Source of the DNA: a virus
Taxonomy: Duplodnaviria > Caudoviricetes
DNA length: 64,000 nt
Virus record (IMG/VR): IMGVR_UViG_3300007512_001664
Location: 136,820 to 200,819 of that record
Strand: one strand, 5' to 3'
Made by a program: the position numbers and the translations under genes. Shown here piece after piece: positions 5,559 to 29,189 of the stretch (positions are counted from its first letter, which is position 1; the number at the start of each line of letters is the position of its first letter). The notes beneath the pieces are model-generated. The model saw nothing but the letters and a program-made list of their open reading frames with translations. It searched no databases and was not told where the DNA came from.

Positions 5559-6425
5559 TTAATCTAAAGTATCAAGTAGTTCTTTAACTTTATCATCATC
5601 AATAGCAGGTGATTTAGAATCGTCTTTTGATGGAGTAGCATCTAAATCATCAAAATTTAAATCATCATCGTCATCATCTGAAGAGATTGTTGATGGTACT
5701 GTAGCAGTCTCTTGACCAGGGTCTTCTGTAACACCATGATAATGCTCATTAAGCATTGTTTGCAGTTCGTCATAACTCTTAACCGGAAAAACATTTTCTA
5801 AGTCAAATGTCTGTTCGTAGATATCTTTAATAGTATCACCTGTTACTCCTGAGATTTGAGAAGGTGATGCAAAACGAGAACTTACATATGTCGGGTACCC
5901 ACCCTGCTCTTCAACTTTAACTCTAAAGTTACAACCTTCCTTTGATAGGTCAAAGATCTTTTCACCAAATTCCTCAGCATCTTCTCCCTCCATAGCTTCC
6001 ATTACAATCTTATGTAATTGACGACCAAACCTAAGAATCTTTACCTTACCTTCATTCTCCGGTTTTTCCGGATCCTTTACTACATAGACATTAACAAGCC
6101 AGTTCTCTTTACGGTTTAAAGCTTTCGCCTTGTCTTTTTCTTCTTCAGAACCAGTACGGGAGATTCTATATCGTGCTTCTGCAATAGGATCCCTCTCTCC
6201 CCACGTCTGTGGACTAATTGCACTCTGGAATTGCCCGGTCATTTCACTCACCCAGCCGTGTGAGTAATAATGAAAAAACGTCTTACCAGGGTCTTTTACA
6301 AATGGTACAAGACGCAATACATATGTATTACCTGGTTTCAATCGCATAATATTACCAGTAGATGTCTTTTGTGCGTCTTGAGCCATTGCTCCTCTAATCG
6401 ATTCAAACATATTTTTCGTTGTCAT
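5559..6425 (-). CDS. gp32: single-stranded DNA-binding protein (gp32)
   Basis: YVLRLVP, YSHGW, DPIAE, NVYVVKDP..PENEGKVKI..FG, GCNFRVK, acidic C-terminal tail (DDDDDDLNFDDL..LLDTLD). Confidence 0.92.
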   Translation of the reverse strand: MTTKNMFESIRGAMAQDAQKTSTGNIMRLKPGNTYVLRLVPFVKDPGKTFFHYYSHGWVSEMTGQFQSAISPQTWGERDPIAEARYRISRTGSEEEKDKAKALNRKENWLVNVYVVKDPEKPENEGKVKILRFGRQLHKIVMEAMEGEDAEEFGEKIFDLSKEGCNFRVKVEEQGGYPTYVSSRFASPSQISGVTGDTIKDIYEQTFDLENVFPVKSYDELQTMLNEHYHGVTEDPGQETATVPSTISSDDDDDDLNFDDLDATPSKDDSKSPAIDDDKVKELLDTLD

Positions 6426-7063
6426 TTTCTTTTTAATATTTCGTTAATGGTTTTCGTTAATTTTATTCCCAATGGTTTGATTTTTTTCGAAAATGTATAT
6501 TTCGATCTCAAACTACTTAAAGTATTATAGAAACTACTACATACAAATTCAACTATATTTTTTTCTAGCTTAATATTTTTCTCTGATACGTTAAGCGCTA
6601 ATAAACTATAATAACTGATGTCTCTGTTTTTTAAATCTAAAATAAAATTTGGATACATACCTGATTCTACCTGTAGATATTCATTACACGTTGTAAGGTT
6701 ATTCTTGACACAGGTATCGTAAATAAATTTAAAGCTATCTCTTAATTTAACAATATTAAATTCGTGATCAGGTTCTGTTAATTCTAATTCTGTTACGTAT
6801 TTTTTATATGTAGAAATAGCATTAAATGTACTGTAGAAATCTAAAGGCACGTATTTTTCTGAATATAATTTATATGGTGCATTAAAAAATATATCTGGAT
6901 CTATATTTTTATTTTTTAAAGTACGTGATATTTTTTTTAATAGAACGTATTTTGTATCGTCTAGTTTTTGAAAATCTTTTCTTGGTGTGAATCCTTTTTT
7001 ATTTCTAGAAGTCTTCAGATAAAGATTATATATATTTTTTTCAAAAACTGATAATTCGCTCAT
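6422..7063 (-). CDS. gp59: putative helicase loader (gp59-like)
   Basis: About 210 aa, basic and helical, immediately upstream of gp32 as gene 59 is in T4. Mainly synteny. Confidence 0.5.
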   Translation of the reverse strand: MSELSVFEKNIYNLYLKTSRNKKGFTPRKDFQKLDDTKYVLLKKISRTLKNKNIDPDIFFNAPYKLYSEKYVPLDFYSTFNAISTYKKYVTELELTEPDHEFNIVKLRDSFKFIYDTCVKNNLTTCNEYLQVESGMYPNFILDLKNRDISYYSLLALNVSEKNIKLEKNIVEFVCSSFYNTLSSLRSKYTFSKKIKPLGIKLTKTINEILKRK

Positions 7064-9741: not shown

Positions 9742-10423
9742 GTTCTAACAGAGTATTATAGAAGTATTCTTCTGATTTGCTATATTCTTCTGTGTGGTTG
9801 AGTAGGCCAGGTGATTCATGAATAATGTGAATAGGGGCAGTGGTTAAGCGCAAACCAGCTAAATGACAATCTAAACAAAATTTTAGATCATAATAATGGA
9901 ATCCTTTAAGGTTAGTATCAAATTTTATTTTTTTCTCGGAAATTGATTTTGTCCGAATTGCAAGAAACACTCCGTCTAATAATACTACTTCTTTAGGTGT
10001 TTGGCCGAAGATTGTAGGGGCATAATCTGTATTATTATGATAATGTGACACTATACCAGACATAGTATCTGGCTTACATAATAAATGCCATAAACAAGGT
10101 TTTTGAACTTGTAACTTACTTCCTCCAGCGACACCGATAATATCAAATCCTCGCTTAAACGCATTACGAATTTCTACTAAGAAATTTATGCTATCAATAA
10201 ATACATCATCATGTACAAAAAGGATACAGTCATATTTTTTAAAATTTTCTGGTATAAGATAATTATTATAAACAGCACACAATCCACTAGTATTTTTATA
10301 TGTAGGCTGTAAGTCGAAAGTAGTTATAGTGTTTTCATCGTGATGAGTTAAGCTTTTAGATAATCTAGTTGTTTTAAAGATGGCTTCAGTAGTTTGAGTT
10401 GCAACCGCAATTAAAGTTTTCAT
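9722..10423 (-). CDS. GT2-like glycosyltransferase (Glyco_tranf_2_5-type)
   Basis: LFVHDDV (DxD-like), IGVAG, LLDGVFLA, FHYYDLKFCL. Confidence 0.75.
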   Translation of the reverse strand: MKTLIAVATQTTEAIFKTTRLSKSLTHHDENTITTFDLQPTYKNTSGLCAVYNNYLIPENFKKYDCILFVHDDVFIDSINFLVEIRNAFKRGFDIIGVAGGSKLQVQKPCLWHLLCKPDTMSGIVSHYHNNTDYAPTIFGQTPKEVVLLDGVFLAIRTKSISEKKIKFDTNLKGFHYYDLKFCLDCHLAGLRLTTAPIHIIHESPGLLNHTEEYSKSEEYFYNTLLEHANKRK

Positions 10424-11058
10424 ATAAAAAATGGAGAATTTAATTTAAATGTATTAGTTTTAGTAAAGTTATTTTTACTAAAATTAAATTCATATACTGT
10501 ACCCTCTTCCACCATTTCCCATTCCGAATATGGCGCTGAACTAAATGATTTATTATCAGTAAATAATGTGGAACCGGATCTAAAAATACGTAACCTACCC
10601 ATATCTGGTTCATACATCCAGCATCCAAATGTTCCTTCAATTTCCGATAGAGCGTTTTGTATACCAGACATATATATCAACGGTAATATTATACTACTAT
10701 CTACTTTATTTACCTTACTTGATAATGTGTATTTTTCTTTTAATTTATCAAAATTTTGTAGTACGCCGTTATGCGCTAAATATGTATTTTTATATGAAAA
10801 TGGATGTGATGTATCAATATTAAAAGTTCTAACTTCTGTCGTAGGGGACTGTACATGTCCTAGGTAATATAAACAAAATGGATTTTCTTCTATATGTCTA
10901 TTAAAATCTTGTTCGTATTTCGTCATTACGCGGACATTATTTTTCATTCCGCTAGGAAACATCATTGTTACGCTACGTACAAAATTACCCCTTTCTGAGT
11001 TCTTTGTATATAACTCTCTAAATGTTTTAATATCTGTTGAACCAAAAATACCACACAT
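10420..11058 (-). CDS. class II (Ntn) glutamine amidotransferase, standalone
   Basis: N-terminal MCGIFG (nucleophilic Cys), LGH, HPF, LAHNGVL, VDS, EGTFG. Confidence 0.85.
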   Translation of the reverse strand: MCGIFGSTDIKTFRELYTKNSERGNFVRSVTMMFPSGMKNNVRVMTKYEQDFNRHIEENPFCLYYLGHVQSPTTEVRTFNIDTSHPFSYKNTYLAHNGVLQNFDKLKEKYTLSSKVNKVDSSIILPLIYMSGIQNALSEIEGTFGCWMYEPDMGRLRIFRSGSTLFTDNKSFSSAPYSEWEMVEEGTVYEFNFSKNNFTKTNTFKLNSPFFI

Positions 11059-11059
11059 A

Positions 11060-12016
11060 TTATTTTAATTGTATGAACTTTGTATCACTCAGGCAACTTA
11101 AATCTTTACACCCGGCGTATGAAATAGAGCTCTTAAGAGCTTTTTCGATTTCTTTTAATCTAATATTATACTCTGGAGCTAAGTCTATTGCTATCTCTCT
11201 CCCTTCAACGAAATTTAATTTATTTCCCTTTTGCATATATGATGTACTTCCATAATATTCCTTATACCCATCAACAATTTTAGCTGGTGAGTCTACACAC
11301 CCTGCAAAGAAAGAACCAGCCATTACACAGTCTGCTCCAGCAACTAATGCTTTTGCGACATCTCCAAATTCTCGACAACCACCATCGGCCATTATTTTAG
11401 CTTTTGTTTTATGTGAGGTAATTTTTAACAATGTTGAAAACATTGGTGTACCAAAGCCTGTTTTATATCTCGTAGTACAAATAACTCCAGATCCGATTCC
11501 TACTTTAATAACGTCAGCACCGGAGTCTTCTAAAAAATGGAACCCGTCGTATGTTCCAACATTACCAGCGATAACTATTACATCAGGTAAATTCCTTTTA
11601 ACGTATCTAATCATATTACCGACTTTTTGATGATGTCCGTGCGCAACGTCAATTGTAATAATATCAACTTTATAATTATTATCTATAATCGCTTCTAATT
11701 CTTGATATGATTTTTCATTTACCCCTATACTGACACTCACACAATTACAATTAAGCTCATTAAGTTGTCGCACTGTTTCAAATACATCCTGAAATCGATG
11801 CATAATATAAAAATAATTATTATCATCTAATTGCTTACAGAGTTTGAGATCTATTACCGTTTCCATGTTAGATGGAACAACTGGTAGATTAAATGTAAAC
11901 TTACCTAATTTAAAAGATGTGTCGGCGTTGTTTCGAGTATCTAATTGACTATATCCTGGTACTAATAAGATATCAGAATATTCTAGCTCTTTACCATGGT
12001 ATATCTGTTCGCTCAT
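11060..12016 (-). CDS. guaC: GMP reductase
   Basis: PVVPSNM, IDVAHGH, AGNV, KVGIGSGVICTT, ADGG, AGSFFAG, YYGSTS, FVEG, SSISYAG. Confidence 0.9.
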   Translation of the reverse strand: MSEQIYHGKELEYSDILLVPGYSQLDTRNNADTSFKLGKFTFNLPVVPSNMETVIDLKLCKQLDDNNYFYIMHRFQDVFETVRQLNELNCNCVSVSIGVNEKSYQELEAIIDNNYKVDIITIDVAHGHHQKVGNMIRYVKRNLPDVIVIAGNVGTYDGFHFLEDSGADVIKVGIGSGVICTTRYKTGFGTPMFSTLLKITSHKTKAKIMADGGCREFGDVAKALVAGADCVMAGSFFAGCVDSPAKIVDGYKEYYGSTSYMQKGNKLNFVEGREIAIDLAPEYNIRLKEIEKALKSSISYAGCKDLSCLSDTKFIQLK

Positions 12017-12677
12017 ATTCGATTGGGTCTTTGATTTTATTCTCTAAAAAGCCTTGTATACGTGAACTACAAGCAGTACAATAACCGCATGCAACTTCTT
12101 TACCTTCATAACAAGTCCAAGTGTCTTCAAAACGCACACCATTATCTAATCCCAGTTTTACGATTTCTCGTTTAGATAACTCAATTAACGGTGCTTCTAT
12201 TTTAATTAGATTTTTTCTATTTAAACTTGTAACGTTATTAATTTCAGTTAAAAATTCCTTACTACCATCCCAGTATCCAGCCTGACTATCTACCAAGGCT
12301 GATCCATGATAAACAGTATTAGCTCCGACCGCTTCAGCATATGAACATGCAATAGACAGCATCATCATATTACGAAATGGCACATAGTTTACAGTTTGAG
12401 CGTCTCCTAGAACATCTCTCGTATGAGCGACTTTAATTTTATTGTTTGTTAAGGAAGAAGTATTAGCAATAGTTTTAAAAAATTGTATATCTAATATTTT
12501 ATGTTGTTCGATACAATCATAATTAATTAATTGAAACCCTGCGAATTGAATTTCTTTACGATGCTTTTGACCGTAATCAAAAGTTATTGCATATATATCA
12601 TCATGTCGATCCGCTGCTATGCTTAGTATTACGGAACTATCTAAACCTCCTGAAATAGGTACAACTGCTTTACTCAT
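11991..12677 (-). CDS. queC: 7-cyano-7-deazaguanine (preQ0) synthase
   Basis: SGGLDS, FDYGQKH, VPFRN, TWTCYEG..CGYCTAC zinc site. Confidence 0.95.
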   Translation of the reverse strand: MSKAVVPISGGLDSSVILSIAADRHDDIYAITFDYGQKHRKEIQFAGFQLINYDCIEQHKILDIQFFKTIANTSSLTNNKIKVAHTRDVLGDAQTVNYVPFRNMMMLSIACSYAEAVGANTVYHGSALVDSQAGYWDGSKEFLTEINNVTSLNRKNLIKIEAPLIELSKREIVKLGLDNGVRFEDTWTCYEGKEVACGYCTACSSRIQGFLENKIKDPIEYERTDIPW

Positions 12678-24007: not shown

Positions 24008-24506
24008 GTTACCTAATTCTTTTTTCAATATTGTTAATTTTACTCCGGTTATAGAATATATTCATAATTCATCGATTGATAAGATATCTGAATTTGATAG
24101 TGAGTTAAAGTTTAATAACAAACAGCATAAAAAATATATATTTCATTATTTTATACATTATACTTGTGAAGTATTAAAAATTTGTAATAATAAGAAAAAA
24201 CCGGTAATATATTTTGACGTCACTAACGCGCTTAATAAAGAGTATATTCCCTTTTTAAACGTTTTTGCGAAGAAATTTCCAGTTATTATAATACGTGAAC
24301 CATTATCCTTTAAAGAATTTAAGAAAACACTTAAATGTGATGGTGTTTCAATAGAGTTAATTATATTGTTAATGAGAAAACTTAAAAAGATACAAATCGG
24401 TAAGTTTTATTTTAGTAAATTACAATACTTTTGTAAGCGTTATGAGTTAACCTTTTTAGATAAAACATATTTCAATGATATAAGAAATAAGCTTTCGCTG
24501 CTATAA
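23964..24506 (+). CDS. hypothetical protein (180 aa)
   Basis: ORF in operon. Confidence 0.6.
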   Translation: MQLENLTKIHHQSYKLPNSFFNIVNFTPVIEYIHNSSIDKISEFDSELKFNNKQHKKYIFHYFIHYTCEVLKICNNKKKPVIYFDVTNALNKEYIPFLNVFAKKFPVIIIREPLSFKEFKKTLKCDGVSIELIILLMRKLKKIQIGKFYFSKLQYFCKRYELTFLDKTYFNDIRNKLSLL

Positions 24507-24509
24507 ATA
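24502..24509 (+). promoter_or_regulatory. late promoter TATAAATA
   Basis: Exact T4 late consensus, 6 nt before ATG 24516. Confidence 0.7.
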
Positions 24510-24515
24510 ATTAAG

Positions 24516-25682
24516 ATGAGTAAGTTTCTTAAAAAAATCGCTGAATTGACAACAGGTCATGATGATACGCACTCTACTGAGACTCAAACCCTTGCTAACC
24601 TAAGAAAAAAGCAGAAGGAGACGCCTAATGATCTTACTGATGATGAAAAGCGAGCATTAAAAGATGATGATGAAAGAACTAAAAAGCTCCAAACCAAGGT
24701 TCAACGGGATATACAGGCCTTAAATTCTTCAACAGAAGTAATTAACTCAATGCTCATCGAGGCTCCAGGAGATGAATTTGTTCCTAGACAAGGACCACCT
24801 GTTGGTGGTGAATTTGAACCAGCTATTCCGCCTCCTGGAGTTGGAGCTCCACCGTTACCGGATCCTGTTCAAGAGCCAGCTGAACCGTTAACGACAGAAG
24901 GAGAAACATTTTTAGTAAATCTTGCTCGTAAAGCATTACATATTAACTTAGATGATGTATTACTATCAGACGCTGATAGAGAACTTATTAATAAAGATGC
25001 TGAACCAGAAACTGCTAAAAAGGTAGCTAAAATTGTACACAAGATACTAGTCGATCAAGGATATACTGAAAGTTTTGTTAATAAAGCAGACATGGTCCTC
25101 GAGGATCTATTAAAAAAAAACGATAAAGTAGTTGTTCTTGTTCCTGGTAGCTTTAAACCACCTCATAAAGGTCATTATGAAATGGTCGAACATTATAGCC
25201 GAGCCTATCCTGATGGTCATGTACATGTTTTAATTTCTGCACCGTCTGCTAAGAGTGAGAGAAGAACTAAAGACGGTAAAGTAATTACTCCATCTGCTGC
25301 TGCGCAGATTTTTGAACTATACGTTCAACCTCTTAATAATGTAACAGTAAGTATTTCTGAATATCCGTCCCCAGTTACGGCAGCGTATGAATCTCTTAAG
25401 ACGTTAGATACTGGAACAACGGTAGTTTTAGGAGCTAGTACAAAAGATAATGATTGGAAGCGCTGGTCATATGCACGTCCATGGGCCGAGAAAGAAGGAT
25501 TAGGTTTAAATATCCTCGACCCGGAACAGACTGCAGTTAATGTTAGTACAAATCCATCAGGCCGTCCTTATAGCGCTAGTAATATTAGAGATAATTTTGA
25601 CGATTTTGAAAAAATAAGGACTGACATACCGGAGCATGTCAATCCTGAGGAGGTTAAGCAAGTTTTTGATTCTCTTCAGTAA
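24516..25682 (+). CDS. cytidyltransferase-like (HxGH) nucleotidyltransferase with long N-terminal extension
   Basis: PGSFKPPHKGH, LGASTKD, SASNIR; N-terminal half acidic and Pro-rich. Confidence 0.85.
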   Translation: MSKFLKKIAELTTGHDDTHSTETQTLANLRKKQKETPNDLTDDEKRALKDDDERTKKLQTKVQRDIQALNSSTEVINSMLIEAPGDEFVPRQGPPVGGEFEPAIPPPGVGAPPLPDPVQEPAEPLTTEGETFLVNLARKALHINLDDVLLSDADRELINKDAEPETAKKVAKIVHKILVDQGYTESFVNKADMVLEDLLKKNDKVVVLVPGSFKPPHKGHYEMVEHYSRAYPDGHVHVLISAPSAKSERRTKDGKVITPSAAAQIFELYVQPLNNVTVSISEYPSPVTAAYESLKTLDTGTTVVLGASTKDNDWKRWSYARPWAEKEGLGLNILDPEQTAVNVSTNPSGRPYSASNIRDNFDDFEKIRTDIPEHVNPEEVKQVFDSLQ

Positions 25683-26330
25683 TTATTTTAAATCTCTGAC
25701 AAAATCATAGAACTCTTGACGAGTTAAATCTGTTTTATCTAAAAACGCTCCTGACATTCTAGCAGTTTTCATAATACTATCATGCTTTACTCCACGAAGA
25801 CCAGCACAAGTATGATTAGCTGATACTAAAACAGCAACCCCTTTATTATCTTTACATACTTCATTCATATAATTATGAATTTGCATAGTTAAGTTTTCTT
25901 GTACTTGTGGTCTTCTTGAAAACCATTCAACAATTCGGTTAATTTTACTTAAACCAATCACCTTACCATCTTTACCTGGTATATAAGATACATGAGCTTG
26001 ACCGATAAACGGTAAATGGTGGTGAGAACAAAAAGAATTAACTTTAATATTACCTTGAAATACTAATCCATCATATTTATCAACATTATCAAATGCTGTG
26101 ATTTTAGGAGGTTCATTATAACAACCCTCAGCTAATTCATTAACAAACGCTTTTGCTACTCGTCTCGGTGTGTCTGCGCTGTTTGGATCATTTCTCCAGT
26201 CGAAACCTAAGGCATCCATATAACACTCATAAGCAGCAGAGGCCTTTTCAATAATTAATTCTTTTTCTTGTTCAGTTCTGGGCTTGTTACCATTAGCGTA
26301 TTGAAGTAAATCCTCATTCATATGAATCAT
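25683..26330 (-). CDS. folE: GTP cyclohydrolase I (true start probably Met at 26321)
   Basis: TPRRVAK, SFCSHHHLPF, GLSKINRIVEWFSRRPQVQE, HTCAGLRG. Confidence 0.96.
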   Translation of the reverse strand: MIHMNEDLLQYANGNKPRTEQEKELIIEKASAAYECYMDALGFDWRNDPNSADTPRRVAKAFVNELAEGCYNEPPKITAFDNVDKYDGLVFQGNIKVNSFCSHHHLPFIGQAHVSYIPGKDGKVIGLSKINRIVEWFSRRPQVQENLTMQIHNYMNEVCKDNKGVAVLVSANHTCAGLRGVKHDSIMKTARMSGAFLDKTDLTRQEFYDFVRDLK

Positions 26331-26356
26331 TATAGTGTATTCGATTTATAAATCAA
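26329..26356 (-). promoter_or_regulatory. sigma70-like promoter TTGATT-N16-TATAAT for folE
   Basis: The -10 box overlaps the first ATG, so the ATG at 26321 (7 nt downstream) is the likely start. Confidence 0.6.
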
Positions 26357-26368
26357 CTAAATAATTAC

Positions 26369-26542
26369 ATGAAATCTATTTTATTATGCGGAGGAAAAGC
26401 ATGCTGTCCGACGTTATCCTTATATGAAGACAAAAAAACAGTCCAAATTACGGATGATGATAATAATACTATTAAGATGGATGTATCTCAAGCTAAATTA
26501 ATTGATAAAGCCTTAAGGGACCTCTTAAAGGAGGATCAATAA
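26369..26542 (+). CDS. small hypothetical protein (57 aa, CGGKACCP)
   Basis: Manual translation MKSILLCGGKACCPTLSLYEDKKTVQITDDDNNTIKMDVSQAKLIDKALRDLLKEDQ; CTAAATA late-like motif 5 nt upstream; not in the ORF track. Confidence 0.7.
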   Translation: MKSILLCGGKACCPTLSLYEDKKTVQITDDDNNTIKMDVSQAKLIDKALRDLLKEDQ

Positions 26543-26826
26543 TAATTATTATCGATATATTAGCGTGTATCGGTTTAACGTTTATTCTTAAATACGGTAC
26601 TATTCTTAATTTTCCTAGAAAACTTCTTACTAGATTGTCGTTTTTACGAGAGTTGTTTAAATGTAGTTTATGTTTAGGGTTCTGGTCAGGTGTTATTGTG
26701 TATTTTGTAAGTAAAAACGATTATATTTTGTTTCCATTTGTCAGCGCTGGTGTATGTTGGATAGTCGATAATTTTAATAATGTTTTACAATCCATAGAAT
26801 TAAAACTTGATAAAGAAGAGAAATAA
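26542..26826 (+). CDS. small membrane protein with CxxC (DUF1360-like), probable ATA start
   Basis: The frame is open upstream of the tracked TTG (IIIIDILACIGLTFILKYG..LFKCSLCLGFWSG); two to three hydrophobic segments. Confidence 0.6.
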   Translation: MIIIDILACIGLTFILKYGTILNFPRKLLTRLSFLRELFKCSLCLGFWSGVIVYFVSKNDYILFPFVSAGVCWIVDNFNNVLQSIELKLDKEEK

Positions 26827-26841
26827 TATATAATCTCATTT

Positions 26842-27327
26842 ATGAGTTTTACTAGTACAAAAATTATTGAACTCGGTAGTTGTGCTTTCCGACAACCAAA
26901 AGCAGAATCACATTGCAGATTTATACATGGATATAGATTAACTGCTAAGTTCTGGTTCGGGGCTAATCAATTAGATAAAAATAATTGGGTAGTTGATTTC
27001 GGTAGTTTAAAGCATCTTAAAAAAGTACTACAAGGTCAATTTGATCACACTCTAGTAATTGCTGCAGATGATCCTGCGATAAGAGCCTTTAAAATGTTAA
27101 ATGACGATGACATTGTGGATTTAAGAATTATGGATGGTGTTGGTATTGAGAAATTTGCTGAGTATTGTTTTAATACTGCTAATAATTTTATTAAAGAGAG
27201 TACAGAGGGTAGGTGCTGGGTAGATAAAGTCGAAGTATTTGAACACGAAAATAATTCTGCTATTTATACAGATAAAATGGTCACAACTATGAGATTTGTT
27301 GACCACACGGATCAAGATAATGGGTAA
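26842..27327 (+). CDS. queD: 6-carboxy-5,6,7,8-tetrahydropterin synthase
   Basis: CAFRQ..HCRFIHGY, VVDFG, FDHT, GIEKFA, VEVFE. Confidence 0.93.
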   Translation: MSFTSTKIIELGSCAFRQPKAESHCRFIHGYRLTAKFWFGANQLDKNNWVVDFGSLKHLKKVLQGQFDHTLVIAADDPAIRAFKMLNDDDIVDLRIMDGVGIEKFAEYCFNTANNFIKESTEGRCWVDKVEVFEHENNSAIYTDKMVTTMRFVDHTDQDNG

Positions 27328-27469
27328 AGGTAGTAAGCGCCGGAAAGAGGATACCAGTAAACTTAATGATAACTGGGATGACATAAAGTGGGATAAACCT
27401 AAGAAGAAGGAAGTAGAACCGAAGGCTCGAGACATAAAAGACTTATATTTAAATGACAAATCTTTATAA
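27320..27469 (+). CDS. small hypothetical protein (49 aa, MGKGSKRR..NWDDI)
   Basis: Manual translation; bridges queD and queE with overlaps at both ends. Confidence 0.6.
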   Translation: MGKGSKRRKEDTSKLNDNWDDIKWDKPKKKEVEPKARDIKDLYLNDKSL

Positions 27470-28214
27470 AGAAGATCTTAGTGATAAGACAATACTGCTA
27501 TCTGATGATAAAGTATTTTATACTGTAGAAGGAGAAGGAGAGTTTGTAGGATATCCTTCAGTCTTTATGCGATTATCTATGTGTAACCTTACATGTCAGG
27601 GTTTCGCTTCAGATGACTCTCCGCATGGTTGTGATAGTTATGTATCTTGGAGTGTAAAGAATAGAATTACAAATGCTGACTTATTACAACACTTAGAACA
27701 GGAAGGTTTTGAAAAGCATTTATATAACGGAGCTATATGGAAGATTACAGGCGGTGAGCCTTTAGTACAGCAGCCCGCATTGCTTAGGTTTTTAGCATAT
27801 ATGGAGGTAGAATGGGGTTGGGTACCTAGAATTGATTTTGAAACCAACGCTACAATTATGCCTGATAAAGAATGGATTAGAGTTGGTGCTACATTTACTA
27901 CTTCTCCTAAGCTTAGTAATAACGGTGACCCAGAAAATAGGAGATATAAACCTAATGTATTAGAATGGCATGCAAACCAGGGATCTGGTTTTAAATTCGT
28001 CATAAGTAAAGAATCAGATTTAGATGAAGTAATGAAAAAGTATGTTGATAAGTTTGATATACCTACAGGTCGTGTCTGGTTAATGCCTTGCGCTGGTAGT
28101 AGAAAAGAGCATATTGAAGTTGCTCCTATGGTTGCAGAGTTAGCTAAAAAGCATCACTTTAATTTTAGTCCTAGGCTGCATTTACTAGTATGGGATATGG
28201 CCTTAAAGGTATAA
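27453..28214 (+). CDS. queE: 7-carboxy-7-deazaguanine synthase (radical SAM)
   Basis: FYTVEGEG, FMRLSMCNLTC..GCDS, ITGGEPL, FETN, SPKL, FKFV, RLH. Confidence 0.93.
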   Translation: MTNLYKEDLSDKTILLSDDKVFYTVEGEGEFVGYPSVFMRLSMCNLTCQGFASDDSPHGCDSYVSWSVKNRITNADLLQHLEQEGFEKHLYNGAIWKITGGEPLVQQPALLRFLAYMEVEWGWVPRIDFETNATIMPDKEWIRVGATFTTSPKLSNNGDPENRRYKPNVLEWHANQGSGFKFVISKESDLDEVMKKYVDKFDIPTGRVWLMPCAGSRKEHIEVAPMVAELAKKHHFNFSPRLHLLVWDMALKV

Positions 28215-28234
28215 CTAAATAAATATTAATTAAT

Positions 28235-28993
28235 ATGAGGATTGCAATTAGTGGAACCGCGTGTCAGGGTAAAACTACTTTAATTAAAGACTTCTTAGAG
28301 CAATGGCCGAGTTATACTACCCCTAAAAAGACCTATAGAGACATAATTAAAGAAAATAATCTCGAGCATTCATCAAAAACTAATAAAAAAACACAAAAGA
28401 AAATATTAGATTTTATGATTAAAGAGCAAAAAAAATATCGTAGCTCTGATAATGTAATTTTTGATAGATGTCCACTAGATAATCTTGTATATAGCATGTG
28501 GGCAACCGAACAACCTGAGGTAGATATAGATGATGATTTTGTACAGGAATGTATTCCTCTCGTTAGAGAGAGTTTTCGTAATTTAGATATTATATTTTTT
28601 ACACCTATAACAAAAGTTGCTCCTGTTGAATTAACAGAAGACGATTTACGAGATACTGACCCTAAAGTTATAGAGGAAGTAGATAATATTTTTAAAGCTA
28701 TGCACCGAGAATACATGAATAATGATTCGAGTGTGTTTTTTATTAAAGATGATAAACCTGGTATTATAGAAGTATTTGGTAATCAGAGAGAACGTATACA
28801 AATACTTAAACTTTATATTGATGCTGAGGGAGATATACATCCGGGCGGCGATCTTATCGATGAAGATATGCTATCTGATATGAAAGCATTAAGTGGTGTG
28901 TGGGCAGATGTAGATCCTACAGAGCATTCTCATTTACGAAAAGCATTAGAAGAGCAAATTGAGAAAGATAAGGCGGGTCGTATGAATAAATAA
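28235..28993 (+). CDS. P-loop nucleotide kinase-like protein (AAA_28/dNMP-kinase-like)
   Basis: IAISGTACQGKTT, IFDRCPLDNLVY. Confidence 0.75.
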   Translation: MRIAISGTACQGKTTLIKDFLEQWPSYTTPKKTYRDIIKENNLEHSSKTNKKTQKKILDFMIKEQKKYRSSDNVIFDRCPLDNLVYSMWATEQPEVDIDDDFVQECIPLVRESFRNLDIIFFTPITKVAPVELTEDDLRDTDPKVIEEVDNIFKAMHREYMNNDSSVFFIKDDKPGIIEVFGNQRERIQILKLYIDAEGDIHPGGDLIDEDMLSDMKALSGVWADVDPTEHSHLRKALEEQIEKDKAGRMNK

Positions 28994-28997
28994 TTAT

Positions 28998-29189
28998 ATG
29001 ACGGATTATGATAAATTATGTGAACGATATATGACTAGACAGGTGCGTTCATTTTATCCACGTAAATTTGAATTATCACAAGAATTTATTGATGCATTTA
29101 AATTAGAATATTCTCGATTAGCTGAAAGCGGTCAAAACAAAAAAACATTATTAGAAAGAATTCGTAAAGCCTTAAGCTTCCATCTTTAA
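28998..29189 (+). CDS. hypothetical protein (63 aa)
   Basis: ATAAATA 5 nt upstream. Confidence 0.65.
   Translation: MTDYDKLCERYMTRQVRSFYPRKFELSQEFIDAFKLEYSRLAESGQNKKTLLERIRKALSFHL

Follow-up and report, generated by a model that had tools for sequence, protein, structure and literature searches.

A set of genes for making 7-deazaguanine bases, and beside them a gene for a P-loop kinase designated kinA here, lie on a 64,000-nucleotide stretch of the viral record IMGVR_UViG_3300007512_001664. That stretch ('the window') is positions 136,820-200,819 of a complete record of 200,819 bp with direct terminal repeats; coordinates below are those of the window unless marked 'genome'. The record comes from a metagenome and represents an uncultured marine phage. 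The phage is T4-like, encoding a gp23-type capsid protein, a family-B polymerase, UvsX/RecA, a DnaB-like helicase and Rad50/Mre11-like proteins; megablast of the locus against cultured phages gave zero matches, so it is not a known isolate. At issue is what the kinase does there.

The first pathway enzyme, GTP cyclohydrolase I (FolE, 215 aa; GTP to dihydroneopterin triphosphate, H2NTP), is encoded on the minus strand at 25683-26330 (Pfam PF01227 GTP_cyclohydroI, E 2.7e-47). Both of its zinc-site motifs, CSHHH and HTCAG, are present, and it is 52% identical to FolE of Flavobacterium phage immuto_2-6A ('immuto' below). On the plus strand stand queD (26842-27327; 6-carboxy-tetrahydropterin synthase, 161 aa; Pfam PTPS, E 1.1e-17; 42% identical to immuto QueD), queE (27453-28214; 7-carboxy-7-deazaguanine synthase, a radical S-adenosylmethionine (SAM) enzyme of 253 aa; phrog_2076 'QueE-like radical SAM', E 4.7e-46) and kinA (28235-28993). 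QueE matches Pfam weakly and is 37% identical to the annotated QueE of halovirus HVTV-1; its radical-SAM cysteines read C-x3-C-x11-C (CNLTC...HGC), with an insertion between the second and third, where the canonical spacing is C-x3-C-x2-C. The gene for QueC, the synthase of 7-cyano-7-deazaguanine (preQ0), lies on the minus strand at 11991-12677 (Pfam QueC, E 2.2e-59), with the PP-loop SGGLDS and the C-terminal Cys cluster in place. The full FolE/QueD/QueE/QueC set is encoded, catalytic and metal motifs intact. An earlier sequence-only reading of the window had placed folE, queD, queE and a P-loop kinase-like gene at these positions and had taken queC at 12 kb to complete the route from GTP to preQ0; open reading frames (ORFs) and family matches bear it out on both points. 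It had also treated folE, queD and queE as one locus: the genes do stand together, but folE runs opposite to queD-queE-kinA, so that two units diverging from each other make up the 'locus'. Of the sigma-70-like sites in the region, the best two lie directly 5' of folE (26329-26356, minus strand; TTGATT-16-TATAAT, 10 of 12 matches) and 8 nt 5' of queD (26807-26834, plus strand; TTGATA-16-TATAAT, 11 of 12, the top match in the region), which suggests a divergent early unit, folE facing away from queD-queE-kinA and a 63-aa frame after it, orf63. These sites are consensus matches, no more numerous in the region than by chance; a queD-queE-kinA-orf63 operon likely starts at the predicted promoter at 26807-26834.

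The plus-strand gene kinA encodes a P-loop protein of 252 aa with the fold of a small-molecule kinase and a C-terminal helical extension. It exceeds the threshold of Pfam AAA_28 (E 4.6e-15; 56.6 bits, cut-off 27), has the Walker A motif GTACQGKTT, and stays below the cut-off of Pfam dNK (PF01712; 20 bits, cut-off 27). An alignment-based AlphaFold2 (AF2) model, at pLDDT 89.9, has a nucleotide-kinase core in residues 1-200 and then two C-terminal helices (~50 residues extra). Its best Foldseek matches, about equally near (TM ~0.5), are thymidylate kinase (TMPK), the ribosylnicotinamide kinase domain of NadR (NadR-RNK) and deoxynucleoside kinase (dNK). Against PDB sequences the family profile finds Mycoplasma deoxyguanosine kinase (dGK) first, at 4e-7, places NRK1 at E 0.36 and does not reach NadR; identities to the distant NadR-RNK, dGK/deoxyadenosine kinase (dAK) and TMPK matches are 10-18%. 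What kinA has in common with the AAA_28 and dNK/TMPK kinases is the P-loop kinase fold; its C-terminal extension is its own, and its partners are que genes and a purine phosphoribosyltransferase (PRT), not genes of NAD metabolism. A second kinase gene, kinB, lies elsewhere in the genome. Aligned by hhalign, the two families prove plainly related (probability 99.9, E 1.6e-35); besides the P-loop, a conserved Gln, a lid Arg and a DRxxxD motif occur in both, and PHROGs assigns both to phrog_2107, 'thymidylate kinase' (E 3.2e-16 for kinA). Profile counts over the genome give two kinases of this family only, one DpdA3 (the base exchanger described below) and one PRT; the same genome has no Thymidylate_kin (PF02223) match, no Guanylate_kin (PF00625) match at E <= 1 and no nucleoside diphosphate (NDP) kinase.

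Homologues of kinA are abundant in marine metagenomes (>1000; 551 representatives at 50% clustering), and their surroundings are informative. At 63% identity the order queE-kinA-orf63 still holds, with an oppositely oriented PhoH gene next; linkage to que genes persists through gene insertions and rearrangement at 39-48% identity; and in lineages down to 33-43% identity kinA still comes after queE, often overlapping it, as it does in a complete genome of 218 kb (G019) whose DpdA3 is 43% identical. Of the kinA contigs with a length of 9 kb or more, 44 in all, 42 have folE, queD or queE within 10 kb of it. One contig (L112) places a NUDIX hydrolase (6219-6755; weak MutT and dihydroneopterin-triphosphate pyrophosphatase-like matches) just 5' of a kinA 39-41% identical to the present one. 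Two distant kinA representatives, used as queries, returned no viral loci. Taken with the protein features, we consider it likely that kinA is a real small-molecule nucleoside or nucleotide kinase dedicated to the deazaguanine system, a diverged paralogue of kinB.

The sequence-only reading had remarked that no tRNA-guanine transglycosylase (TGT) or DpdA could be recognised in the 64-kb window, and this is so: Pfam TGT and DUF6610 find nothing there, nor in the whole genome, and the only match to a DpdA3 profile lies outside the window. The reading offered two ways to account for the absence: that dpdA lies elsewhere, or that a new, DpdA-free route makes a deaza-dGTP for the polymerase. The first was right. 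An operon DpdA3 - DpdN - 116-aa protein - kinB - QueF occupies genome 10372-13617 (minus strand), 123 kb upstream of the window, and with a DpdA3 encoded there, absence from the window carries no information on the route and cannot support a DpdA-free pathway. Two things had been set against that new route, a dpdA elsewhere and a kinase specific for normal deoxynucleoside monophosphates (dNMPs); the full-genome profile search, with no Pfam TGT protein and one DpdA3, supplies the first of them.

The DpdA3-family gene itself (genome 12799-13617, minus strand; 272 aa) matches no Pfam family but phrog_19058 at 5.1e-44, and is present in a single copy by the DpdA3 profile. Its product is 46% identical, over 92% of its length, to the enzyme annotated 'DNA guanine transglycosylase' in immuto, and ~40% identical to a homologue annotated as a hypothetical protein in Campylobacter phage CP220. 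DpdN (Formyl_trans_N, 2.6e-11) and QueF (QueF_N and QueF domains, 5.5e-33 and 3.7e-17) are 40% and 43% identical to their immuto counterparts. Membership of DpdA3 in the TGT superfamily is assigned by HHpred in the literature (PMC10516641); the present analysis supports it weakly, at the level of motifs, by local hhalign matches that set LDNS opposite IDSG of phiSM DpdA (E 0.015) and HHLLG...SLDT opposite MHLLGG...SIDG of HVTV-1 DpdA4 (E 0.041), and by a weak DUF6610 match (E 0.063). The DpdA3 profile finds nothing relevant among PDB sequences, and a single-sequence AF2 model reaches pLDDT 35.

DpdA3 has a steady companion. A kinB-type kinase, the more NadR-like of the two paralogues, accompanies DpdA3 in 69 of 80 loci, L107 being the only one of these where it does not lie downstream; it usually comes directly after DpdA3 or DpdN, often overlapping, and most of the loci that lack it end at DpdA3. 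A kinB-type gene follows DpdA3 in immuto and in CP220 as well. The control clusters, those of phiSM (DpdA2) and HVTV-1 (DpdA4), in which modification is partial, have no kinase or PRT of these families.

DpdA3 was named by Hutinet et al. (2023), who linked it to complete replacement of G, identified the base of immuto_2-6A as formyl-preQ1, made with DpdN and QueF, and proposed that insertion is post-replicative (PMC10516641). All seven genes of the immuto system have homologues here, in the operon order DpdA3-DpdN-kinase-QueF (in the immuto record, DpdA3-x-DpdN-'thymidylate kinase'-QueF), and immuto too has a Gpt-like PRT, between QueE and FolE. The two phages differ in layout: immuto has one compact cluster and no paralogue of the kinA type, and the T4-like genome has its genes in four places; immuto has a PRA-PH/MazG-like hydrolase 5' of DpdA3, and the 116-aa protein stands inside the operon here. 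They differ also in how they are known, the base having been identified in immuto, the present phage being known from its genes alone. CP220 (a Firehammervirus with dADG, the deoxy form of 7-amido-7-deazaguanine (ADG), at 100% G replacement) is T4-like, as is the present phage, and has a kinB-type kinase immediately after its DpdA3. It carries a further kinase of the kinA/kinB family, gp006; this was considered as the kinA orthologue and rejected, since it scores higher with the kinB profile, and unlike kinA it is encoded away from que genes. Upstream of the CP220 DpdA3 there is instead an HD + AAA_33 fusion, no PRT homologue was found in the parts of CP220 examined, and the pathway is said in the literature to stop at 7-carboxy-7-deazaguanine (CDG) or ADG (PMC10516641). 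The gene set of the marine phage equals that of immuto, whose DNA carries formyl-preQ1 for every G; the system is another member of the DpdA3 kind, probably of the formyl-preQ1 type. That the locus in the window is the early precursor module of such a DpdA3-type system, replacing all G, we hold to be very probable on the gene content.

A further gene ties this system to the purine pool. A Gpt-like purine PRT is encoded at genome 19011-19490 (Pfam Pribosyltran, 43.8 bits, cut-off 26.3); among NCBIfam models it matches xanthine-guanine PRT best (1.2e-20, short of the equivalog cut-off), and it is homologous to the immuto 'phosphoribosyl transferase' (gp211). Against cultured phages tblastn with the PRT gave no match at 1e-3, although immuto gp211 matches it in a small database. 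Overlapping genes in the order QueE-PRT-kinA occur in four contigs (one of 171 kb with a kinA 33-35% identical, and three from IMG/VR), QueE-PRT-FolE in at least six others, and QueE-x-x-PRT-FolE in immuto; in still other contigs the PRT is a few kb from DpdA3. About half of 80 PRT loci have no deazaguanine genes nearby, and these also lack kinA and kinB. The loop that binds phosphoribosyl pyrophosphate (PRPP), DDxxD(T/S)G, and the C-terminal W..FPWE motif are identical in linked and unlinked phage PRTs. The third Asp of that loop contacts the purine N7 in hypoxanthine-guanine and xanthine-guanine PRTs (HGPRT/XGPRT); its invariance argues for an ordinary 6-oxopurine as substrate, most simply guanine. 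The arrangement over all these phages suggests two modules, one for insertion (phosphohydrolase, DpdA3, DpdN, kinB, QueF) and one for supply (PRT, kinA, FolE, QueD, QueE).

Enzyme assignments in this account are homology-based, and substrates for kinA, kinB, the PRT and DpdA3 are all inferred. With that understood, the reading preferred here, to which we give a probability of about 0.4, makes kinA a GMP-type kinase and has it work with the PRT to turn displaced guanine back into GTP for FolE. Guanine displaced by DpdA3, plus guanine released from host nucleotides, would be joined to PRPP by the PRT to give GMP; kinA would convert GMP to GDP; NDP kinase, which must come from the host because the phage genome has none, would convert GDP to GTP; and the GTP would feed FolE, so that the pathway would refuel itself. 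In the wider model, judged the most coherent, kinB, adjoining DpdA3, would handle the modified deoxynucleotide. This reading is preferred because kinA and the PRT keep company with the early, GTP-consuming genes, kinA standing apart from DpdA3, QueF and DpdN, and because the PRT resembles an ordinary guanine PRT. As a GMP kinase, kinA would be an analogue of the guanylate kinase family and not a member of it.

Several observations weigh on the other side. The substrate of kinA cannot be read from its sequence: the protein falls outside the guanylate kinase family, and its nearest solved relatives, all weak, are nucleoside kinases (dGK/dNK, NadR-RNK) and TMPK. The host's own guanylate kinase (Gmk) should handle GMP, and phages that have the PRT without deazaguanine genes lack kinA, so a dedicated GMP kinase is not obviously needed. 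A distance of 146 kb separates kinA from the PRT here. Around a distant kinA homologue (L188, 32% identity), 5 kb of upstream and 10 kb of downstream sequence contain no deazaguanine genes. Immuto and two phages of ~100 kb (G017, G018) have kinB and no kinA, so that kinA is not universal among DpdA3 phages. Much of the synteny of kinA, finally, could have been inherited within a single broad clade of marine T4-like phages, and so not reflect genes that came together independently.

A wider proposal, advanced tentatively, concerns DpdA3 itself: it would be a base exchanger at the nucleotide or nucleoside level rather than a DNA transglycosylase, turning dGMP or dG and a 7-deazaguanine base into deaza-dGMP or deaza-dG and guanine. 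The kinases kinB and kinA, the PRT and a phosphohydrolase would then make up a pre-replicative pathway to a 7-deaza-dGTP analogue for the phage polymerase, with the guanine recycled to GTP. A step at the level of nucleotides (deaza-dGTP) is plausible with DpdA3 included, rather than in the DpdA-free form first suggested for this window, because of the conserved kinases, the purine PRT and the NTP-phosphohydrolases that relatives encode next to DpdA3. Two of the latter lie directly 5' of DpdA3: immuto gp208 (L002:8279-8803) is a PRA-PH/MazG-type NTP pyrophosphohydrolase (3.1e-10), and CP220 gp055 (L003:4862-5893) is an HD phosphohydrolase fused to a kinase of the AAA_33 type, resembling polynucleotide kinase (PNK); neither is mentioned in the paper on DpdA3 (PMC10516641). 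In the genome at hand, Pfam searches for HD, MazG, NUDIX, PRA-PH and DUF1599 found no match. A candidate for the missing phosphohydrolase, unproven, is the 116-aa protein of the DpdA3 operon (genome 11896-12246, minus strand), which lies between DpdN and kinB and is conserved in the lineage, with ~46% identity in others. It has ESM features at 0.96 to DUF1599 clusters and a phrog_1485 match; it has no Pfam match, and a PDB profile search returned nothing. Its identification as a MazG-like hydrolase was tried by hhalign against immuto gp208 and dropped, no relation being found.

The parallel is with phage T4. Its trio of dCTPase (gp56), dCMP hydroxymethylase (gp42) and dNMP kinase (gp1) is the textbook pre-replicative route, and leads to complete substitution by hydroxymethylcytosine. 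The same complete-replacement logic, with a phosphohydrolase, a base modifier and a dedicated kinase together, is seen around DpdA3 in immuto and CP220, and in both systems the phage-specific kinase is not of the host type. The DpdA3 phages differ in that the modifier is a TGT-like base exchanger, and the present genome in that no dGTPase can be recognised; the likeness drawn is of logic and does not rest on homology to gp1, gp42 or gp56.

The strongest alternative for kinA is the second explanation of the sequence-only reading, amended to include DpdA3. The substrate of kinA would then be a (deoxy)nucleoside or nucleotide of 7-deazaguanine, and the enzyme would be either a nucleoside kinase or the second of two kinases, kinB acting first; DpdA3 would swap the base on dGMP or dG, and the family-B (gp43-like) polymerase would insert the resulting modified dGTP analogue. 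Several points favour it. Complete replacement is typical of pre-replicative pathways, and two phosphohydrolase genes directly 5' of DpdA3, in separate lineages, mirror the T4 trio. The coupling of kinB to DpdA3 is nearly universal, kinA is its paralogue, and the nearest relatives of kinA are (deoxy)nucleoside kinases. A phage GMP kinase should be superfluous beside host Gmk; a host kinase may reject 7-substituted deaza nucleotides, and this would explain a dedicated phage enzyme. In the literature, 100% replacement is reported for DpdA3 phages only, action of DpdA3 on DNA could not be shown in E. coli, and free ADG nucleoside is reported in CP220-infected cells (PMC10516641). Nevertheless kinA sits with the early genes from GTP to CDG and not with DpdA3, DpdN and QueF; smaller DpdA3 phages do without it; and no dGTP-clearing enzyme is recognisable by Pfam (HD, MazG, NUDIX, PRA-PH), the 116-aa operon protein being the sole candidate. 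No TGT-family enzyme is known to act on mononucleotides, which also counts against the proposal, and for kinA we regard it as rather unlikely.

Alternatively, kinA might be a general dNMP kinase for all DNA precursors, a functional analogue of T4 gp1, and owe its place after queE to inherited gene order. Such an enzyme would fit the PHROG label 'thymidylate kinase' in a genome without a canonical TMPK or guanylate kinase, the que-free context of the distant L188 homologue, and the position of the kinA-like gp006 of CP220, which lies between topoisomerase and dUTPase genes; weak homologues in Streptomyces phages are also annotated as thymidylate kinase. Inherited order sits poorly, however, with a linkage to queE, queD and folE that survives rearrangements and extends down to 33-43% identity in separate lineages, and the paralogue tied to DpdA3 and the lack of a Pfam Thymidylate_kin match tell against a general kinase too; we think this improbable.

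More improbable still is a role in NAD salvage, unrelated to DNA modification, in which kinA would be a ribosylnicotinamide kinase like the C-terminal domain of NadR, forming a split NadR with the product of the gene that ends beside folE. The 388-aa product of that gene (24516-25682, plus strand) is disordered and Pro/Glu-rich in its N-terminal half and carries at its C-terminus a nucleotidyltransferase domain of the HIGH type (motifs HKGH and SASNIR; Pfam CTP_transf_like and NCBIfam cyt_tran_rel match weakly; ESM features at 0.96 to viral cytidylyltransferase-like clusters). The gene adjoins folE/queD in relatives, the complete genome G019 among them, at identities down to 26-44%. Its synteny is one point in favour; others are that AAA_28 is the NadR-RNK family, that NadR structures are among the top Foldseek matches, and that JGI names some kinA homologues 'nicotinamide riboside kinase'. 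On sequence, though, the kinA profile misses NadR, its best PDB match is dGK and NRK1 comes in at E 0.36; the nucleotidyltransferase matches models of nicotinamide mononucleotide adenylyltransferase (NMNAT) only at E ~1e-3; kinB, which resembles NadR more than kinA does, is found coupled to DpdA3 and QueF instead; and the PRT that partners kinA is a purine, not a nicotinamide, enzyme. The promoter types differ as well: a late-promoter-like TATAAATA stands at 24502-24509, 7 nt before the nucleotidyltransferase ATG, and queD-queE-kinA follows a sigma-70-like promoter. The nucleotidyltransferase is syntenic with folE, and its membership of the pathway is doubtful.

Bacterial DpdA reportedly requires ATP hydrolysis by DpdB, and CP220 gp055 has its PNK-like AAA_33 domain next to DpdA3; that kinA is likewise an ATPase partner of a pathway enzyme, or a polynucleotide kinase, and not a metabolite kinase is nonetheless hardly credible, since kinA and kinB keep the acceptor-site hallmarks of the TMPK/dNK type (conserved Gln, DR..D motif, lid Arg), the fold of kinA matches small-molecule kinases, and there is no likeness to DpdB-type proteins.

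A GMP reductase (GMPR)-like gene, for a purine-pool enzyme, at 11060-12016 (minus strand) overlaps the end of queC (PRK05458, 1.7e-94, 316.8 bits, cut-off 344; Pfam IMPDH, 7.8e-61), and a class-II glutamine amidotransferase domain protein is encoded downstream of this pair at 10420-11058 (minus strand; Pfam GATase_6, 6.1e-11). GMPR-like genes lie within 10 kb of the Gpt-like PRT in six other contigs where no deazaguanine genes were seen, and one lies 7 kb from kinA in G019; the pairing suggests that PRT and GMPR form a wider purine-balancing pair of phages. The only ribonucleotide-reductase signal found is a borderline Pfam Ribonuc_red_lgC match (14.6 bits) in a ~720-aa ORF at genome 29292-31448 (plus strand). 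A similar assortment of enzymes has a precedent in Streptomyces rimosus: McCarty and Bandarian are said to have described in 2008 a toyocamycin/sangivamycin cluster in which ToyD/B/C/M are FolE/QueD/QueE/QueC, ToyH is a phosphoribosyltransferase and ToyE a GMP reductase. That pathway shares with the phage the four preQ0 enzymes, a phosphoribosyltransferase and a GMP-reductase homologue in one genome, and it is a precedent for joining a 7-deazaguanine base to PRPP to give a nucleotide; it differs in that the phage PRT keeps ordinary 6-oxopurine motifs, DpdA3 is present, and the product is DNA and not a nucleoside antibiotic.

Small ORFs accompany the main genes. The 63-aa orf63 (28998-29189, plus strand) starts 4 nt after kinA and always directly follows it, ahead of the convergent PhoH gene; it keeps 89-100% identity among close relatives, has changed less than kinA (92% identity where kinA has 64%), has no family match, and may be a partner or regulator of kinA. 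Between folE and queD lie a conserved 57-aa ORF (26369-26542, plus strand; 43-93% identity in related contigs that have it in the same place; no family match above threshold) and another of 63 aa (26635-26826, plus strand), which is hydrophobic with a Cys-rich N-terminus, conserved in the lineage and without a family match. Homologues of the latter (34-51% identity) adjoin the Gpt-like PRT in other phage lineages (contigs L242-L249), and it is a further recurrent, unnamed companion of these genes. Far from this group, Streptomyces phages of ~131 kb have weak kinB homologues (27% identity; in LukeCage, L271:6204-7615) that overlap the end of an annotated 'methyltransferase' gene, with a MazG-like gene 5 kb upstream; here too a kinase may accompany an enzyme that modifies nucleotides.

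No described 7-deazaguanine system includes the kinase linked to queE, its paralogue linked to DpdA3 or the purine PRT linked to queE and folE, and no published work on DpdA3-linked kinases or the PRT was found. The words 'kinase' and 'phosphoribosyl' each occur 0 times in the text of the DpdA3 paper, which does not discuss either protein (PMC10516641); neither kinase has a part in its post-replicative model, nor do the PRT and the phosphohydrolases. For the complete replacement of G by DpdA3 phages, the published model rests on the presence of a DpdA homologue alone, and the enzyme could not be reconstituted. What remains is a nucleotide-pool branch of DpdA3 systems that is conserved and has not been described before. 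Four small, soluble enzymes give a testable handle on it, for their substrates would tell pre-replicative from post-replicative insertion. If DpdA3 exchanges bases at the nucleotide level, action on a mononucleotide would be the first known case in the TGT family; should the nucleotide route hold, these enzymes would also serve to prepare 7-deaza-dNTP analogues. Should kinA prove to be no more than a GMP kinase that helps to recycle guanine, it would make a modest but new point about the economy of DNA hypermodification.

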